A stretch of 64,000 nt of DNA, taken from positions 1,313,044 to 1,377,043 of the forward strand of contig CAVXSS010000002.1 of the NCBI GenBank assembly GCA_963764515.1. The letters run 5' to 3'. Below are positions 6,168 through 33,072 of this stretch, one piece after another. This stretch comes from an uncultured Chloroflexia bacterium. Its GTDB lineage: Bacteria; Chloroflexota; Limnocylindria; Limnocylindrales; CSP1-4. Below the pieces are notes generated by a model. That model saw only the letters and a program-made list of their open reading frames with translations. It searched no databases and was not told where the DNA came from. The translations under genes were made by a program, and so were the position numbers. The stretch's first letter is position 1; the number at the start of each line of letters is the position of its first letter.

Positions 6168-6725
6168 ATGATCAGCACCGGCGAACTCAAGAAGGGCGTC
6201 GCCATCGAGCTCGACGGTGAGCTCTGGCAGATCCTCGACTACCACCACATCAAGATGGGCCGCGGATCGGCCCAGGTGCGCATCACGCTGCGCAATATCA
6301 AGCGCGGCCAGACCGTGGAGCGCTCGTTCCAGGCCGGGACGAGGTGGCCGCGGGCCTCGATGGAGAAGCGCCCGGTCCAGTTCCTCTACCGCGACGGCGA
6401 CGACCACCACTTCATGGACACCGACACGTACGACCAGTTCATCCTGACCGGCGAGCAGCTGGGCGAGACGGCCCAGTACCTCAAGGACGGGATGACGCTC
6501 GACCGGACCAGCTACCAGGGCGAGACGATCGGCGTGGAGTTGCCGGTCACGGTGGACCTGCGGGTCGCCGAGACCGAGCCGGGCTTCGCGGGTGACACGC
6601 AGACCGGCGCCCGCAAGAACGCGACGACCGAGACGGGCCTCGTCGTGGTCGTGCCGATCTTCGTCGAGACCGGCGACACGATCCGCGTCGACACGCGGAC
6701 CGGGGAGTACCAGACCCGGGTCTGA
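6168..6725 (+). CDS. efp: elongation factor P
   Basis: MISTGELKKGVAIELDGELWQILDYHHIKMGRGSAQVRITLRNIKRGQ is canonical EF-P. 185 aa. Confidence 0.95.
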   Translation: MISTGELKKGVAIELDGELWQILDYHHIKMGRGSAQVRITLRNIKRGQTVERSFQAGTRWPRASMEKRPVQFLYRDGDDHHFMDTDTYDQFILTGEQLGETAQYLKDGMTLDRTSYQGETIGVELPVTVDLRVAETEPGFAGDTQTGARKNATTETGLVVVVPIFVETGDTIRVDTRTGEYQTRV

Positions 6726-9249: not shown

Positions 9250-11295
9250 TTGACCTTGCCGATCCTGCCGAACCTCCATGGGCCTGCCGACCTGCGTGGC
9301 CTGTCGGAGGTCCAGCTCGCCCAGCTCGCCCTGGAGATCCGCGAGACGATCATCTCGACCGTCTCGGTCACGGGCGGCCATCTGGGCTCGTCGCTCGGCG
9401 TCGTCGAACTCACGCTCGCGCTGCACCGGCTGCTGGAATCGCCACGCGATCGCATCGTCTGGGACACCGGGCACCAGGCCTACCCGCACAAGCTCTTGAC
9501 CGGGCGCTTGGAACGCTTCGGGACGCTGCGCCAGCTCGACGGGGTCGGCGGGTTCCCACGCCGCTCCGAATTGCTGCATGACGTGTTCGATGGCGGCCAT
9601 GCCGGCACTGGCCTCTCGATCGCCGAGGGCCTGGCCGAGGCGCGCGACGTCCGGCACGGTCTCGAGCGCATCGCGGTCGTCGTCGGCGACGCGGCCCTGA
9701 TGAGCGGCCTCTCGCTCGAGGCCCTCAACGACATCGGCCAGCGCAAGACCCAGATGCTCATCGTCGTCAACGACAACGAGATGTCGATCAGCCCGACGGT
9801 CGGTGCCTTCTCGAAATACCTGAGCCAGATCAAGCTTTCGAGCGCGTGGCGCCAGGGCAAGAGCGCGTACGACCGGACGGTCGAGCGGATCCCTGTGGTC
9901 GGTCCATCGGTGCTCGAGCTCTCGAAGCGCCTCCGCCAGTCGGTCGTCAAGTTCGCCCAGCCGGGCCAGCTGTTCGAAGACCTTGGGATCACCTACATCG
10001 GTGTCGTGCCCGGTCACGACCTCCATGCATTGCTCGGGACGCTGGCTGCGGCGCTGGCCAATCCCGGTCCGACGATCGTGCACGTTCGGACGCAGAAGGG
10101 TCGCGGCTATCGGCCGGCCGAGGCCGACCAGGTCGGCTTCCATGGGGCGGCGCTGCCGCCGATGGCGCCGCCGGTCAACGGCGCCGATGGCGGCGGGACG
10201 GCGGCCGCTGGCAGCGGGGATGCCCCGGTCCTTCCCATGCCCACCGAGTCGATAGCCGACGACGCCGCACCACCGACGCGGGCCTTCGAGGCGCCGACGA
10301 AGCACCCGAACTACACGGCCGTCTTCGCGGCCGAGCTGATCGAGGCGGCTCGAGAAGACCGGCGCATCGTCGGGATCACGGCCGGCATGCCGACCGGGAC
10401 CGGCCTCTCGAAGTTCCAGGCCGAGTTCCCCGACCGCTTCTTCGATGTCGGCATCGCGGAACAGCACGCGGTGACGTTCGCGACCGGGCTCGCGCTGGGC
10501 GGCCTGCGACCGGTCGTCGCCATCTACTCGACGTTCCTGCAGCGGGCATTCGACCAGACCGTGCACGATGTCTGCCAGAACGATCAGCCGGTCCTGATCG
10601 CCGTGGATCGTGCGGGGCTCGTCGGCGAGGACGGCACCAGCCACCAGGGGATGTTCACGTTGTCGGCTCAGCGACAGCTGCCCAACCTGGTGGTCGCCTC
10701 TCCCCGTGATGAGCAGGAGCTGCGCTCGATGGTCCGGACGGCGTTCAGCCAGGATCATCCGTTCGCGCTGCACTACCCGCGCGACGCGGGCTTCGGGCTG
10801 CCATCCGTGGAGCCTGAGATCCTGCCGATCGGCCGCGGCGAGGTCCTTCGGGAGGGCCACGACCTGTTGTTCGTCGGCTTCGGGCCGATCGTCGCACGGG
10901 CGGTGGAGGCCGCGGACGCACTCGAGGCCGAGGGCTGGTCGATCGGGGTCATCAACGCCCGGTTCGCGAAGCCGCTCGACGGTCAGCTCATCCTCGACCA
11001 GGCCCGCGGTAAGCGACTCCTTGTCACGTTCGAGGAGAGCGTCGCGATCGGGGGCTTCGGCAGCGGCGTCCTCGAGGCGCTCGAAGAGGCGCGACTCACG
11101 GACCCGGCCCTGCGCGAGCTGGCCGTGCGGGTCATCGGCATCCCGGGCGATCGATTCGTCGACCACGGCTCGGTGGCGGACCTGCGCCGCGTCCTCCGCC
11201 TGGACGCCGCGGGTCTCACCTCACAGGTCCGCGACACGCTCGCGGTGCTCCAGGCCACGCCGGCCGCGCGTGAGGCGCCCAGCGCCGGCCGGTAG
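9250..11295 (+). CDS. dxs: 1-deoxy-D-xylulose-5-phosphate synthase
   Basis: TPP-binding GGHLGSSLGVVELTLALH, transketolase-like pyrimidine and C-terminal domains. TTG start at 9250 after an AAGGGAG RBS. The table ORF from 9049 carries an implausible N-extension. Confidence 0.9.
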   Translation: MTLPILPNLHGPADLRGLSEVQLAQLALEIRETIISTVSVTGGHLGSSLGVVELTLALHRLLESPRDRIVWDTGHQAYPHKLLTGRLERFGTLRQLDGVGGFPRRSELLHDVFDGGHAGTGLSIAEGLAEARDVRHGLERIAVVVGDAALMSGLSLEALNDIGQRKTQMLIVVNDNEMSISPTVGAFSKYLSQIKLSSAWRQGKSAYDRTVERIPVVGPSVLELSKRLRQSVVKFAQPGQLFEDLGITYIGVVPGHDLHALLGTLAAALANPGPTIVHVRTQKGRGYRPAEADQVGFHGAALPPMAPPVNGADGGGTAAAGSGDAPVLPMPTESIADDAAPPTRAFEAPTKHPNYTAVFAAELIEAAREDRRIVGITAGMPTGTGLSKFQAEFPDRFFDVGIAEQHAVTFATGLALGGLRPVVAIYSTFLQRAFDQTVHDVCQNDQPVLIAVDRAGLVGEDGTSHQGMFTLSAQRQLPNLVVASPRDEQELRSMVRTAFSQDHPFALHYPRDAGFGLPSVEPEILPIGRGEVLREGHDLLFVGFGPIVARAVEAADALEAEGWSIGVINARFAKPLDGQLILDQARGKRLLVTFEESVAIGGFGSGVLEALEEARLTDPALRELAVRVIGIPGDRFVDHGSVADLRRVLRLDAAGLTSQVRDTLAVLQATPAAREAPSAGR

Positions 11296-11563
11296 CGCCC
11301 GCGGCGCCCGCCGGGCGGCCCCCCGGCGTCTTGGTGCGCCCCACGCACCGAAACCTGCGCCGCACTCGGCGGCCGCTTCGCCACAACAGGGTCGTTGCGC
11401 CCGATGCACCGAATCCTGCGCCGCGGCAGCGTTTGTGCCCGGAGGGAGCCGTTTGAGCAAGAATCGTTGCGCACCACGCATCGAACATGCCTCGACGGCC
11501 CTACCCGGGGGTGCGCGGGCACCCGGCAAGCACGAATCCGTGCGTCCGACGCAGCACCGCACG
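11296..11563. repeat. cluster of degenerate GC-rich palindromic repeats (locus a of a dispersed family)
   Basis: Three or four imperfect units, e.g. TTGGTGCGCCCCACGCACCGAAACCTGCGCC and TTGCGCCCGATGCACCGAATCCTGCGCC. Core inverted repeat GGTGCG-N5-CGCACC. Related to repeats at 25.9, 32.7 and 46.6 kb. Confidence 0.5.
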
Positions 11564-12322
11564 TCACCGTCCGAGGCGAACACCAGGTGGCGGGTGTCGC
11601 ATCAACGTCGCCATGGTGCCGTGGACGTTCATCCAGACGATGCCGGCTCCGGGCCATGGCGCGTCGGGTGACGTCAGGGCCGCGATGACCTCGCCGGTGC
11701 GAGCCGGATAAGCAGCGGCCAGCGTGGCCTCGAACTGACGGGCAAGATCACGCGTCGTTGTCGTGGTACGCAGGATCAGGAGCCGCGAGACCTCCCGTGA
11801 ACCCTCGCCTCGGTCCTTGGAGGCAAGCTGCTCCCGAAGCCCGTCCGCCTTCTCGGCGCTCCACCGGATCTGCTGCTCCAGGCGTCGGAGGTCCGAGTAG
11901 GCCTCGCTCGCGACGTTGACCGCAGCACCTTCGTCGGTCAGCACGAGGTCGATGACGCCGCGCGCCGGATGGCTGATGGGGACCTCGAGATCGACACGCC
12001 ATCGCGGGTCGAGCGCACGCAGGAACGCCTCGACCATCGGCGCCTGGAATCGATCGTGAAGACGCGGTCCAGCGCCTGCGAAGTATCTCAGGCTCAGGTC
12101 GGCACCGAGCGCGATACCGATGGCGATGAGGCGCTCGAGCGACGGCTGCAGGAGACCTGCTTCGATCCGGCTGATCGTTGACGGATCGACGTCGACGACG
12201 GCGGCAAGGGCCCTCATGGAGACGTTAGCATCGACACGCAGCCGACGAACGTCCTCTCCGACCTGCAGGGTGAGCCGCCTCGACCGGCGGGCCGTCTCGA
12301 TCGTGACCTGGGTGGGGGTGGT
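11564..12322 (-). CDS. XRE-family helix-turn-helix transcriptional regulator
   Basis: N-terminal HTH (LRVDANVSMRALAAVVDVDPSTISRIEAG) plus a C-terminal domain, as in actinobacterial XRE/DUF5753-type regulators. Start MTTTPTQV chosen. The C-terminal tail runs into the repeat cluster. Confidence 0.6.
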   Translation of the reverse strand, partial: TTPTQVTIETARRSRRLTLQVGEDVRRLRVDANVSMRALAAVVDVDPSTISRIEAGLLQPSLERLIAIGIALGADLSLRYFAGAGPRLHDRFQAPMVEAFLRALDPRWRVDLEVPISHPARGVIDLVLTDEGAAVNVASEAYSDLRRLEQQIRWSAEKADGLREQLASKDRGEGSREVSRLLILRTTTTTRDLARQFEATLAAAYPARTGEVIAALTSPDAPWPGAGIVWMNVHGTMATLMRHPPPGVRLGR

Positions 12323-12450
12323 CGTCATCGACCGATGACACCATAGGCCGCTTAGCTGCGAGTTGCGGCGAGCGCCAGCATCGTGAACCGCAAGCCGCTG
12401 ACCGCACTTGAGGTGAGCCCGGGTGAAGCGGGCTGTGCCACGATAGGCGG

Positions 12451-12630
12451 GTGAGTCCGGCCGACAGCGCGACGACGAACGCAAAGACCAGGCGGGTCCG
12501 GCTCGACCAGTTGCTCGTGGAGCGGGGGTTGGTCGAGTCGCGCAGCCGCGCCCAGGCGCTCGTGCTGGCCGGCAAGGTCCGGGTGGGGGGGGCGACGCCG
12601 CCCGTCACGACCGCAAGCCCGGCGACCTGA
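12451..12630 (+). pseudogene. tlyA: tlyA 5' segment (S4 RNA-binding domain) in a different frame from the methyltransferase domain
   Basis: Frame 1 encodes [32 protein letters not shown] (TlyA S4 domain) and ends at TGA 12628-12630 after a G8 run at 12586-12593. The methyltransferase domain continues in frame 3. Confidence 0.55.
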
Positions 12631-12653: not shown

Positions 12654-13352
12654 GTGGACGAACCCGAGCCCTTCGTCAGCCGGGGCGGCCACAAGCTCGC
12701 GGCCGCGCTCGATGCCTTCGGGATCGATCCGGCCGGGCTCGTGTGCCTCGACGTCGGCGCCTCGACCGGCGGCTTCACGGATGTCCTGCTGCAGCGCGGT
12801 GCGAGCCGCGTCTACGCGCTCGACGTGGGACGCGGGCAGCTTGCCGAACCGCTGCGCCGCGAGCCGCGCGTCGTCTCGATGGAGCGCACGAACGCACGCA
12901 CCCTGACCTCGACGACGCTTCCCGAGCCGATCGCGCTCGCCACGATCGACGTCTCGTTCATCTCCCTGGACCTCGTCCTCAAGCCGGTCCTCGCGACGCT
13001 GGCCCATGCGGGCCACATCGTCGCGCTCGTCAAGCCGCAGTTCGAGGCGGGACGCGGCCGCACCGATCATGGCGTCGTCCGCGACCCGGCCGTGCACGCA
13101 GAGGTCCTGGAACGCATCGTGGATCGCGCCCAGGCGCTCGGTCTCGGGACCCGTGACGTCATCGCCTCGCCGCTCCTGGGGCCGCAGGGGAACCGCGAGT
13201 TCTTCGTTCACCTCGCGCCCGGACCCGGTTGTGCCGATGCCCCCAAGCGGATCGCGACCGTCACGACGCCACCGGAAGGCACGCCACCAGAAGGGACGCA
13301 ACGAGAAGGGACGCAACGAGAAGGCACGCAACGTAAAGGCACCCACACATGA
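12654..13352 (+). CDS. tlyA: 16S/23S rRNA (cytidine-2'-O)-methyltransferase TlyA, FtsJ-like methyltransferase domain portion
   Basis: VSRGGHKLAAALDAFGID...CLDVGASTGGFTDVLLQRGASRVYALDVGRGQL is the TlyA SAM-methyltransferase signature. ATGA overlap with nadK. Confidence 0.75.
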   Translation: MDEPEPFVSRGGHKLAAALDAFGIDPAGLVCLDVGASTGGFTDVLLQRGASRVYALDVGRGQLAEPLRREPRVVSMERTNARTLTSTTLPEPIALATIDVSFISLDLVLKPVLATLAHAGHIVALVKPQFEAGRGRTDHGVVRDPAVHAEVLERIVDRAQALGLGTRDVIASPLLGPQGNREFFVHLAPGPGCADAPKRIATVTTPPEGTPPEGTQREGTQREGTQRKGTHT

Positions 13353-23872: not shown

Positions 23873-25483
23873 GTGGCCGCGCATTCGGGCGGGCTCCCGG
23901 TCGTCGCCGTCGTCGGCCGACCGAACGTCGGCAAGAGCACGCTCTTCAACCGGATCGTCGGCGGCCGCACGGCAATCGTCGAGGATCGCGCCCACACGAC
24001 GCGCGACCGCCTCTACGGCGACGCCGAGTGGAACGGCCGGCGTTTCGTGCTGGTCGACACGGGCGGCCTGGAGCTCGACCCGGACGACCTGATCGAGGCG
24101 GCGGTCCAGGACCAGGCCAGACTCGCGATCGCCGAGGCGGACGTCATCGTGCTCGTGGTCGATGCCGTGGTGGGGCTGACCCCGCCCGACGAGGAGGCGG
24201 CCGACATCCTGCGCCGCGCCAAGGCCCCGGTCATCGTCGCGGTCAACAAGGCCGACAACGAGAAGCGCGAGCTCGAAGGGGCCGAGTTCCATGCTCTCGG
24301 CTGGGACGAGACCTACGCGATCTCCGCGACCCACGGCCGGGGCACCGGCGACCTGCTCGATGCGATCGTCTGGGCCCTGCCGCCCGAGAGCGAGCAGGAG
24401 CTCGCCCGCAAGGCGCGCGAGGCCGAGGCCGACGCCTGGGCCGATGAGGTCGCGGCCGGGCGGCTCGAGCCGTACGTCGTGGGCGACGCCGACGCGGACG
24501 AGACCGACGGTGACGACGCCGAGCCCGATATCGACCTCGCCGCCGTGGACCCAGAGGCGGCTCGCTGGGACGCCGCGATGGCCGCCGAGTCCGAGCAGGA
24601 GCCCGCCGCGATCGCGTTCGTCGGGCGCCCGAACGTCGGCAAGTCGAGCCTGCTCAACGCGCTCCTGGGCGAGGAGCGGGTCATCGTGTCGGAGATCCCG
24701 GGCACGACGCGCGACTCGATCGATACGCGCCTTGCGTGGGGTCGCAGCGAGATCGTCCTCATCGACACGGCCGGCATCCGTCGTCGAGGGAAGGTGGCGG
24801 GCGGTCCGGCAGCCGAGCGCTACTCGACGCTGCGCGCGCTCCACGCCCTCACCCGCGCGGACGTCGCGGTGCTGGTCATCGATGCGGTCGAGGGGCTGAC
24901 GTCGCAGGACGCCCACGTGGCGGGCTACGTGGTGGAGGAGGGGAAGGGCCTGGTCATCGCGGTCAACAAGTGGGACCTCGTGGCCGACAAGACCGACCGC
25001 ACCTTCGACCAGTACACCGAGTGGATCCGCAACGAGGTCCCGTTCCTCGACTTCGCCCCGATCCTCTCGATCAGCGCCAAGACCGGCCAGCGCGTGGGAC
25101 GCGTCCTCGAGGCCGCGGTCGACATCTGGGCCGAGCGCCGCAAACGCGTCTCGACCGGCGAGCTCAACCGCATGCTGATGACCGCCACGGAACGGACGCC
25201 GCCACCGCCCGTGCGTGGCCGGCGACCGAAGATCTTCTATGCCACGCAGGCGGCCGTGGCCCCGCCGACGTTCGTGTTCTTCGCCTCGGACGGGTCGGCC
25301 GTCCACTTCAGCTATCGCCGATACCTCGAGAACCAGCTGCGCGAGACGTTCGGCTTCGACGGGACGCCGATCAAGCTCGTGTTCCGCGACCGGTCGTCGG
25401 TCAAGCTGCCTCGGCGCAAGAGGCGGGCTCCGGCGAAGCCCGCACGGCGCGCCAGCGCGGGGAAGACCCGCCGCTCCCGCTGA
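23873..25483 (+). CDS. der: ribosome biogenesis GTPase Der (EngA)
   Basis: Two GTPase domains ([12 protein letters not shown] and [12 protein letters not shown]) and a KH-like C-terminus. An acidic insertion lies between the G-domains. GTG start. Confidence 0.9.
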
Positions 25484-25570
25484 TGGCCGGCCCGCGGGTC
25501 GCGGGTGGTCGGCGCGGGGTAGGGAGGCCCCGAGGGCGGTTCAGGTGGGGTGCTAGACTTCGCGGTCTGG

Positions 25571-25647
25571 CGGGGCGTGGCGCAGTCTGGTAGCGCACCA
25601 GTCTGGGGGACTGGTGGTCGTCGGTTCAAATCCGGCCGCCCCGACCA
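25571..25647 (+). tRNA. tRNA-Pro (anticodon GGG)
   Basis: Cloverleaf: acceptor CGGGGCG/CGCCCCG, D-arm GCGC..GCGC, anticodon stem CCAGT/ACTGG, loop CTGGGGG, T-arm GTCGG-TTCAAAT-CCGGC, 3' ACCA. Confidence 0.9.
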
Positions 25648-25662
25648 TTCGTACACATCACG

Positions 25663-25818
25663 ATGAAGCGACTGATCTCCGCGATCGTGATCGCCCTGCT
25701 GCTTGCGGCTTGCACGGCGCCCCCAGGCGCGACGCCCCTGGCGCCAGCATCGGCCGCACCCGCAGCCTCGGGCGCACCCGCCTCGGGCGCACCAGCCCCA
25801 ACGAAAGCAGGCTATTAG
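25663..25818 (+). CDS. putative small lipoprotein (51 aa)
   Basis: ATG 15 nt after the tRNA. MKRLISAIVIALLLAAC has a lipobox. The remainder is an A/P/S-rich tail. Not in the ORF table (below size cut-off). Speculative. Confidence 0.3.
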   Translation: MKRLISAIVIALLLAACTAPPGATPLAPASAAPAASGAPASGAPAPTKAGY

Positions 25819-25859: not shown

Positions 25860-26112
25860 CAGAGGTAGGGCCTGCCGGCCGCATCCAGGTTGCCCATGGT
25901 TGGCGCTGCAGAACGACGCCTCAGGGGTTGCCCCGATGACTGCCAGTCACGAATCACTGTATGGCGAACCTTCAGGCGGCACTCCGGGACCGTTCGTGCG
26001 AGAGGGCGCGACTGTCAGTCACCAAACCCTGCGTCGGACGTCCTCCAAGGGCCGCGTCTTCGATCCGGCGCACGAAACCGTGACTGCTGGTCACGCCACT
26101 CGGGCGGCGACG
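25860..26112. repeat. cluster of palindromic repeats (locus b of the dispersed family)
   Basis: Three units with cores TGACTGcCAGTCA, GACTGtCAGTC and GTGACtgctgGTCAC, each followed by GAAWC. ORFs predicted here translate to repetitive T(A/V)SH peptides, so the region is taken as non-coding. Confidence 0.5.
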
Positions 26113-26120
26113 GTGAGTGG

Positions 26121-26540
26121 CTACTCCTTGCCCTCGGGATCGAGCGCCAGGGCCGCCGAATTGATGCAGTAGCGGAGGCCGGTCGGGTTCGGACCATCGT
26201 CGAAGACGTGGCCGAGATGGCCGCCGCAGGTCGCACACATCGCCTCGGTCCGGGTCATGAAGAAGGAGCGATCGGTCTCGGTCGCCACGGCGCCCGGGTC
26301 CGCGGGCGCGAAGAAGCTCGGCCAGCCCGTGCCGGACTCGAATTTGGTCTCGGAACGGAACAGCTCCGTCCCGCAGCCGGCGCATCGATACGTGCCGGCT
26401 CGATGTTCGTCCCACAGGTCCCCGCTGAAGGCGCGTTCGGTGCCCTTCTGGCGAAGCACCCGGTACTGCTCGGGAGTGAGTTCGGCACGCCATTCGGCGT
26501 CGGTCTTGTGCTGCGCTGACTCGCGCTTGGTGTCTGTCAT
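26121..26540 (-). CDS. msrB: peptide-methionine (R)-S-oxide reductase
   Basis: Two CxxC pairs (CAGCGTELF and [12 protein letters not shown]) with RYCINSAAL. Start taken at MTDTKRE. Confidence 0.9.
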
Positions 26541-32639: not shown

Positions 32640-33072
32640 GCCGCATCGGGCTCTCAAGGTGGGTTGGTGCGTGGTGCGCACCATTTCCTGCGTGGGCCGC
32701 GCTCGACCGGGCCGTCGGGCGCCCTCGGGCGCGTTCTGGTGCGTGGTCCGCACCGTGTCCTGCGCCGGGAGGTCGGGACCGGACCGCAGCGGGTCCTGGC
32801 GCAGGTATTGGTGCGTGCCACGCACCGGGATCCTCCGGACCGTGGCCACGCCCGTGACGGTCAGTCACGAGTCGCTGCACGACGGCCAGCGAAGGCCCGC
32901 CAGATCGCCTCACATGCAGGATTCCGTGACTCACGGGCACCGGATACTGCCCCGACAGCCCGCGATCGAGGGCGAAGGCCGCTCTGGCGGGCCGCCATGC
33001 AGGAAACCGAGACTGCGAGTCACGGCTCGGGCGACGGCCCGAGTCGTCCCGGCCGCGGAACGGGCTAGGATG
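32640..33072. repeat. cluster of palindromic repeats (locus c, largest copy array of the dispersed family)
   Basis: Three units TGGTGCG-N5-CGCACC...CCTGCG (N5 = TGGTG/TGGTC/TGCCA), then three units with GTGAC-N-GTCAC or GACTgcgAGTC cores, two of which are preceded by CATGCAGGAWWCCG. Many nested GC hairpins. Confidence 0.5.

Follow-up and report, generated by a model that had tools for sequence, protein, structure and literature searches.

The DNA analysed here (the window, a stretch of 64 kb) has a G+C content of 71%, and its Der protein is 70-94% identical to the Der of 80 GTDB Limnocylindria-group species. At the locus of interest, der (+ strand, ending at 25483) is followed by a tRNA-Pro(GGG) gene (25571-25647, +), a 51-aa lipoprotein-like ORF (25663-25818, +), a cluster of palindromic repeats termed array b (25915-26120, +) and the convergent gene msrB (26121-26540, -; SelR, E 1e-51). 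The tRNA gene is an upstream neighbour and lies outside the repeat. A second version of the locus is provided by L201, a metagenome contig (ENA ERZ1700618) recovered through lit homologues, whose Lit and MsrB proteins share 82% and ~94% identity, respectively, with those of the window. The 51-aa ORF, another upstream neighbour of the array, starts 16 nt after tRNA-Pro. Its signal peptide is of the lipoprotein type (Pfam LPAM_1, lipobox LAAC), and its tail, rich in Ala and Pro, is encoded by 15-18-nt tandem repeats (25745-25797). Since it has no clear GC3 bias and is absent from L201, its coding status is doubtful.

The gpsA gene is missing between der and tRNA-Pro in the window (25484-25570), where its first dozen or so codons are fused to its last few bases, and tblastn over the whole 64 kb detected no GpsA. 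The gene sits between der and tRNA-Pro in L201, L203 and L205 (cf. L205:173-1222, L201:1-724), and other der loci show a der-tRNA gap of ~1.1 kb, leaving room for it. Its absence reflects either a true deletion, with gpsA located elsewhere in the genome, or an assembly artefact. Elsewhere in the window, 4.5 copies of a 15-nt tandem repeat (ACGCAACCAGAAGGC) occupy positions 13266-13342, at the 3' end of an FtsJ/TlyA-like methyltransferase gene (12654-13352). No leading-strand assignment was obtained from GC skew.

Array b comprises three modules at 72-nt intervals and two linkers, and ends at the msrB stop codon, which lies 27 nt from the end of the third palindrome. Unit b1 (25924-25963, +; 25.7 bits against the covariance model described below) contains the palindrome ATGACTGCCAGTCAC at 25936-25950, followed by GAATCACTG. 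Its perfect core is TGACTG-C-CAGTCA, the 13-nt core TGACTGCCAGTCA occupying 25937-25949, and GACTGNCAGTCACGAWTCRCTG is kept both in the b1 orthologue (L201:1304-1343) and in the paralogous unit d1. Unit b2 (25996-26035, +; 32.8 bits) carries the palindrome GCGACTGTCAGTCAC at 26008-26022, with the core GACTGTCAGTC at 26010-26020, and then CAAACCCTGCG. Unit b3 (26068-26107, +; 34.3 bits) opens with GCACGAAACC, continues with the palindrome GTGACTGCTGGTCAC at 26080-26094 and closes with the tail CTCGGGCGGCGACGG; it is ~90% identical to L201:1447-1486 and similar to d3. From start to start, the palindromes are exactly 72 and 72 nt apart, and each linker opens with CTG(C/T) and closes with GC(A/G). 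The three cores named in a preliminary description of the locus were all recovered, at 25937-25949, 26010-26020 and 26080-26094. Its statement that each core is followed by GAAWC applies to b1 (GAATC) only: CAAAC follows the core of b2, and in b3 GAAAC stands before it. The array signal comes from exact matches, clustering and spacing, and not from the count of loose 13-mer matches, which over the whole window (12, with 6.1 expected) is not above chance.

Pattern, profile and covariance-model searches found 13 units in three intergenic regions of the window, all on the + strand, at 11.32-11.57, 25.92-26.12 and 32.65-33.04 kb. The sequence available for a unit count, 64 kb for the source genome and 16 kb for L201, gives a density of 13 units per 64 kb in the former. 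Array a (11322-11567, +) consists of four GTGCG..CGCAC units at 11333, 11394, 11466 and 11538, with spacings of 61, 72 and 72 nt, and takes up the spacer that separates dxs from a convergent XRE-type HTH gene. This latter gene (11564-12484, -), which abuts the array, encodes a ~170-aa C-terminal domain without a Pfam match and may be acquired DNA, because its GC3 is lower than that of its neighbours. Array c (32655-32838, +) has three GGTGCG-N5-CGCACC units at 32666, 32738 and 32810 (spacing 72 and 72 nt) and abuts array d (32842-33036, +), the paralogue of array b, whose units at 32854, 32926 and 33009 (spacing 72 and 83 nt) lie directly upstream of lit. Together, arrays c and d fill the 447 nt that separate a DUF4332 gene from lit. 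Counted within and between adjacent arrays, the spacing is 72 nt in seven of the ten intervals.

The likeness of array b to the region at 32.8-33.0 kb, first put at roughly 70% by eye, survives formal alignment: in a blastn comparison within the window, 25932-26109 and 32851-33036 share 62% identity across 192 nt (E 2e-5). When array b was used as an nhmmer query against a 0.92-Mb database, the d arrays of the window and of L201 were the best non-orthologous matches, at an E value of only 0.1 each. The kinship of array b with the other loci is real. The covariance model (R1) describes a 40-nt unit. It gives the 13 units 22-34 bits and everything else in the 64 kb at most 16.4 bits; as these units form its training set, the informative result is only that nothing else comes close and that there are no solitary units. 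Likewise, the + orientation of all 13 units is a weak observation, the model having been built in that orientation.

Two stem types can be distinguished, G-GTGCG-N5-CGCAC-C in arrays a and c and C-GTGAC-N5-GTCAC-G in arrays b and d; they differ at three stem positions by paired changes. In the 19 units compared (13 from the window and 6 from L201), 85% of stem cells pair, compared with 17-39% when the pairing partners are slid. The covariation score over the same units is 0.415, against 0.144 in shuffled alignments, with none of 500 shuffles reaching it and double changes in four of the six pairs, although the existence of only about two stem types, or alleles, means that few independent events lie behind this covariation. 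Within the b/d type alone, 84% of the proposed pairs form (27-41% when slid), and the compensatory changes seen in three pairs are not significant. The A/T-rich motif GAAWC flanks the stem on its 5' side, its 3' side or both, always as a direct copy, and the outer flanks are GCA(G/C) on the left and CTGC on the right. With the GAAWC and GCAG/CTGC flanks included, the module is thus an imperfect palindrome of ~40 nt. Because the flank motifs are asymmetric, every array can be oriented, and all point along the + strand. Each module has an apical stem of 5-7 bp and a nominal 5-nt loop, and 47-nt modules fold as extended imperfect stem-loops.

Both b and d have counterparts in L201. Array b occupies the orthologous site, abutting the msrB stop codon, with units at 1316, 1387 and 1459 (spacing 71/72 nt), and matches the array b of the window with an nhmmer E value of 8e-14. 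Array d precedes lit; its units start at 9783, 9855 and 9938, and its spacing of 72/83 nt is that of the window. The four b/d arrays are colinear over ~210 columns, units corresponding 1-1, 2-2 and 3-3, with a mean column identity of 72%. In this four-way alignment the modules of paralogues are 64-70% identical and their linkers 37-57%, and both d arrays share a ~10-nt indel in linker 2 relative to the b arrays. The colinear units and the shared indel place the b/d duplication before the split between the window and L201 lineages. The duplicated block of ~200 nt consists of three distinct modules in 72-nt phase and exists in two paralogous copies older than the genome split; judged from the alignment, it was copied whole between sites b and d before the two genomes separated.

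The rate of change differs along the arrays. Identity between the orthologues is 88% over the three 15-nt palindromes, compared with 65% over the remainder (Fisher p 3e-5); for the wider modules it is 79%, and for the linkers 59%. Four-fold degenerate sites of lit and msrB, compared between the window and L201, are 65-70% identical. The remainder of the arrays therefore stands at about the level of four-fold sites: linker drift is about neutral, and the palindromes are preserved. As far as the comparison of these orthologues reaches, the palindromes are under purifying constraint.

The wider taxonomic distribution is narrow and discontinuous. No unit was found in any of 80 GTDB der loci, and 855 kb from ~95 other Limnocylindria loci contained zero GTGCG-N5-CGCAC or GTGAC-N5-GTCAC hairpins outside L201; profile and covariance-model searches of the 855 kb of relatives also found units only in L201. 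A 25.5-bit match in L036 was rejected as a unit, being a single unrelated 9-bp hairpin. This contig, from another Limnocylindrales MAG, also carries GC-rich tandem repeats upstream of tRNA-Pro (CCGCCGGGCCCCGCCGG... and GGGCGTCGGGC..., at L036:5830-5960 and 6170-6235), whose sequence is unrelated to the window units. Scans of viral contigs for the repeat gave nothing, or single chance matches inside genes only.

Close relatives differ in which arrays they possess. In L002, L047 and L072, msrB lies downstream of tRNA-Pro and there is no b array; in L047 and L072 the interval contains other DNA, including small ORFs, and in L002 the spacing is larger. Other msrB contigs (L227-L229) have no array. 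In L202-L205 and L219-L226, the DUF4332-lit spacer measures only 52-58 nt and is free of units. L201, unlike the window, has no array c. Conversely, L201 carries a third hairpin type, GATCC-TTGCATC-N3-4-GCAAG-GATCC, as four head-to-tail units (L201:740-985) spaced at 70, 61 and 63 nt; this array lies between gpsA and tRNA-Pro, an interval in which the window has none, and model R1 is blind to it. As far as these loci can be compared, arrays have been gained or lost between close relatives. Such presence and absence differences, together with the relatives that have no units, mean that the family is young or confined to a narrow clade, and that it is dynamic.

A 90-aa ORF (25900-26172, +) runs through array b and overlaps msrB by 52 nt. 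Its reiterated peptides had been regarded as an artefact of a non-coding repeat, and the available evidence agrees. Over 25860-26120 the G+C content is 0.62-0.68 in all three codon phases, the GC3 of the neighbouring genes being 0.93 for der and 0.82-0.84 for msrB. The translated product matches no Pfam family, and a search of 5.8 billion proteins returned no homologue. Substitutions between the window and L201 orthologues fall evenly on the codon phases (24/24/25 in array b, 17/24/20 in array d) and are not 3-periodic; moreover, the 71-nt spacing in the L201 array b puts a stop codon in the frame. Conservation as a protein, which would have told against a non-coding element, is thus not apparent, and array b was rejected as a coding sequence; the ORF is considered spurious. 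The opposite view, that the frame encodes a repeat protein, could draw on the 72-nt period, a multiple of three, and on the peptide T-x-S-H-E/D-S-L, which is common to the first units of b and d with some third-position differences. It is hardly credible against the tests just described, and these negative results make the divisibility of 72 by three a coincidence. No more credible is a chance resemblance among the loci, which is excluded by the orthologous conservation of array b and by the gap in covariance-model scores.

Proximity to a tRNA gene had also been taken to point to an integration or insertion hot spot. In related genomes this is partly borne out: the interval varies, and L022 and L044 carry partial copies of the 3' half of tRNA-Pro (L022:9454-9502, L044:5367-5409; 43-54 nt, 88-91% identical) ~2.7 kb downstream of the gene, a signature of integrated elements that marks this tRNA as a hot spot of integration in the group. 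The repeat itself, however, is not explained thereby. There is no duplicated, att-like tRNA-Pro 3' end in the window, and tRNA-linked integration of array b was rejected on this ground. Furthermore, array b abuts the msrB stop codon and not the tRNA, and the other arrays of the window, after dxs and between the DUF4332 gene and lit, have no tRNA nearby. The position of array b next to a tRNA is, for these reasons, incidental. An 11/13 match of b3 to the tRNA anticodon arm was discounted as within chance by our own estimate.

Taken together, these observations make one reading of array b moderately probable: that this non-coding array is one copy of an intergenic hairpin-repeat family specific to the lineage, REP/BIME-like and untagged, although not a demonstrated member of REP/BIME. 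On this view the palindromes would function as stem-loops, whether in RNA transcripts or in single-stranded DNA. A start 30-47 nt past a + strand stop codon is seen in four of six arrays, namely a and the c/d pair of the window and, in L201, d and the third type; the two b arrays start further downstream of the + strand stop than the other four. With these positions, and with a and b lying in convergent spacers, a role as 3'-end barrier or terminator is the most economical reading: hairpins downstream of + strand genes could stabilise transcripts, or end them, where genes are closely packed or converge. The arrays may have grown by tandem duplication of an ancestral unit of ~72 nt, possibly with the help of a putative trans-acting enzyme. 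Some properties sit less easily with this reading. As RNA, the b hairpins are weak (-3.5 to -8.2 kcal/mol) and have no U-tract. Taken over its full length, array b folds no more stably than shuffled sequence, with z scores of -1.1 (+ strand) and -1.8 (- strand), and a globally structured RNA over the array was rejected on these values. Within a stem type, moreover, the sequence itself is conserved, and not just the pairing, mismatches being inherited unchanged, so that recognition by a protein fits as well as a hairpin. A cis-regulatory role towards lit or msrB was rejected, the orthologous spacers in relatives being empty.

Protein recognition leads to a different view, in which a dimeric protein binds the palindromes as duplex DNA, each stem type having its own protein or paralogue, and sites phased at 72 bp would make up an array comparable to an operator, a centromere or a nucleoid-organising element. 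The half-site GACTG/CAGTC occurs in 11 of the 12 b/d modules and GTGCG/CGCAC in the 7 a/c modules with a few mismatches; in several cores the palindrome is perfect around a 1-nt centre and could not close as an RNA hairpin. The weak folding energies of the b hairpins and the maintenance of spacing while the linkers drift would also be understandable, and symmetric double changes are expected for such sites too. However, the direct GAAWC copies and the CTGC/GCAG flanks are strand-asymmetric, and the arrays share one orientation; they are placed at the 3' ends of genes and within a convergent spacer, not at promoters. Close relatives do without the arrays, and no candidate binding protein is linked to them. 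Dimer sites are the leading alternative, though an unlikely one. An RNA function of the whole ~200-nt three-module block, either as a family of small RNA genes represented by two paralogues or as a cis-acting UTR element, seems rather improbable. The block is colinear in two paralogues and two genomes with constrained modules and a consistent strand, and closing stems between linker ends (CTGC...GCAG) are possible, with three compensatory pairs. On the other hand, Rfam gives no match, the fold is no better than shuffles and covariation is not significant on four sequences. No promoter-like site was found, and conservation between the window and L201 does not extend into the upstream flank. The b array has a 3' convergent context, whereas that of d is 5', and the orthologous genes of relatives lack the block.

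The two paralogous copies of the block could also be taken as a functional unit of an undescribed kind, a phased protein-binding platform (on DNA or RNA) or a modular RNA, in which case the GTGCG arrays would represent a second specificity of one system and the family as a whole would be no passive REP-like repeat; this, too, is quite unlikely. Decayed orphan CRISPR arrays would account for the layout in another manner, 72 nt being repeat plus spacer and the hairpin with GAAAC the 3' end of the repeat. The likeness lies in the ~72-nt period, in the alternation of conserved, partly palindromic modules of ~35-40 nt with variable linkers of ~32-37 nt, and in the GAAAC or GAATC that adjoins the hairpins. 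The pattern of variation is nevertheless the opposite of that of CRISPR: repeats within one array are only 60-85% alike and position-specific, matching position by position between paralogous or orthologous arrays, and the linkers are vertically inherited and drift at a neutral rate instead of being replaced. For both of these reasons a CRISPR remnant was rejected, and it must be regarded as very improbable. In addition, there are three to four mini-arrays of only 3-6 units in housekeeping spacers, no CRISPR leader, and no cas gene in the window ORFs scanned or in the gene tables of relatives.

Array b is accordingly best filed as a real, non-coding and lineage-restricted palindromic repeat array, REP-like in nature, but untagged, head-to-tail, with a 72-nt period and organised as a three-module block. 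The Limnocylindria (Ellin6529) belong to the Chloroflexota, abound in soil and freshwater and are known from metagenomes only; no account of their repeat content was found. The family offers a clean case of untagged, head-to-tail palindromic repeats with a measurable constraint on the hairpins and with gain and loss between close relatives, and it bears on the spread of REP-like elements without a recognisable GTAG tag or RAYT. If abundant genome-wide, it would mark transcript ends and could serve as a strain marker; gene callers could also be confused by the 90-140-aa ORFs that run through the arrays. Current understanding is not overturned, and the function proposed here is an inferred one.

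Several known kinds of element resemble the arrays in part. Bidirectional intrinsic terminators share with them GC-rich stem-loops placed right after stop codons, including those of a convergent pair, and on the - strand b3 reads as a hairpin followed by GGUUUCG. The arrays differ in lacking a real U-tract, in aligning three to six hairpins in series and in the weakness of the b hairpins; a terminator scan of the window did not pick the array hairpins, its sole terminator-like site lying elsewhere. A known RNA family was rejected for array b, since Rfam returned nothing credible even at permissive thresholds (E<=10 for b, E<=1 for a, c and d) and only two tRNAs reach the gathering score. The MIRU of mycobacteria are head-to-tail intergenic units of ~50-100 bp in a high-GC genome, their number varies, and open frames run through them and end on the start codon of the next gene, with translational coupling of these small ORFs to the neighbouring genes. 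The present arrays have the same head-to-tail tandem layout between genes and differ in unit number between relatives, and the frame through array d ends in the GTGA of lit in both genomes, with no coding signature in the substitutions. A stop overlapping the lit start is, however, also present at the empty site of relatives without the array. Unlike MIRU, the units are far more diverged, with linkers near random, they are centred on a conserved palindrome, and their frames bear no sign of translation.

The closest comparison is with REP sequences, which typically bear an unpaired GTAG or CGTC tetranucleotide at one side of the stem base, reach tens to thousands of copies in a genome and flank a cognate RAYT gene. 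These are short palindromes of 20-40 bp, often clustered, with GTAG- and CGTC-tagged super-families; inverted dimers dominate and head-to-tail pairs are rare, GTAG REPs are associated with RAYT transposases, and untagged REP-like families exist (Di Nocera et al. 2013; PMC3733652). In the present family the flanks of all 19 units are G-W-W-W-Y / GAAWC, with no GTAG, CTAC or CGTC in register. Every unit is head-to-tail where REPs usually form inverted pairs, the regular 72-nt spacing keeps one orientation instead of alternating as in BIMEs, and a fixed three-module block has been copied whole. No Y1_Tnp/RAYT or other transposase was found among ~38 window ORFs or in the gene tables of L201-L205, RAYTs being single-copy and 64 kb a small sample. 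A metagenome scan for two GGTGCG-N5-CGCACC hairpins 50-62 nt apart returned, among the matches listed, mostly classical REPs of the form GTAGG-GTGCG-N5-CGCAC-C, usually alternating and from unrelated bacteria, and no Limnocylindria arrays. This classical REP is very widespread in metagenomes and occurs at many G+C contents (L081-L200, e.g. L162:2328-3131, L093:3481-4013 and L166:950-1215); long tandem arrays of it are frequent and have periods of 33-39 or 66-78 nt, that of L162 consisting of 12 units of 73 nt, each an inverted REP pair. The stem and loop of arrays a and c, GGTGCG-N5-CGCACC, are those of this very common REP. With 5-7-bp stems, a 5-nt loop and an intergenic location for all 13 units, the family agrees with REPs in size and extragenic position. 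Like REP/BIME elements, it is made up of short GC-rich imperfect palindromes, mostly just past gene ends, that are regularly spaced in clusters, fall into several sequence classes per genome, and are gained and lost between relatives.
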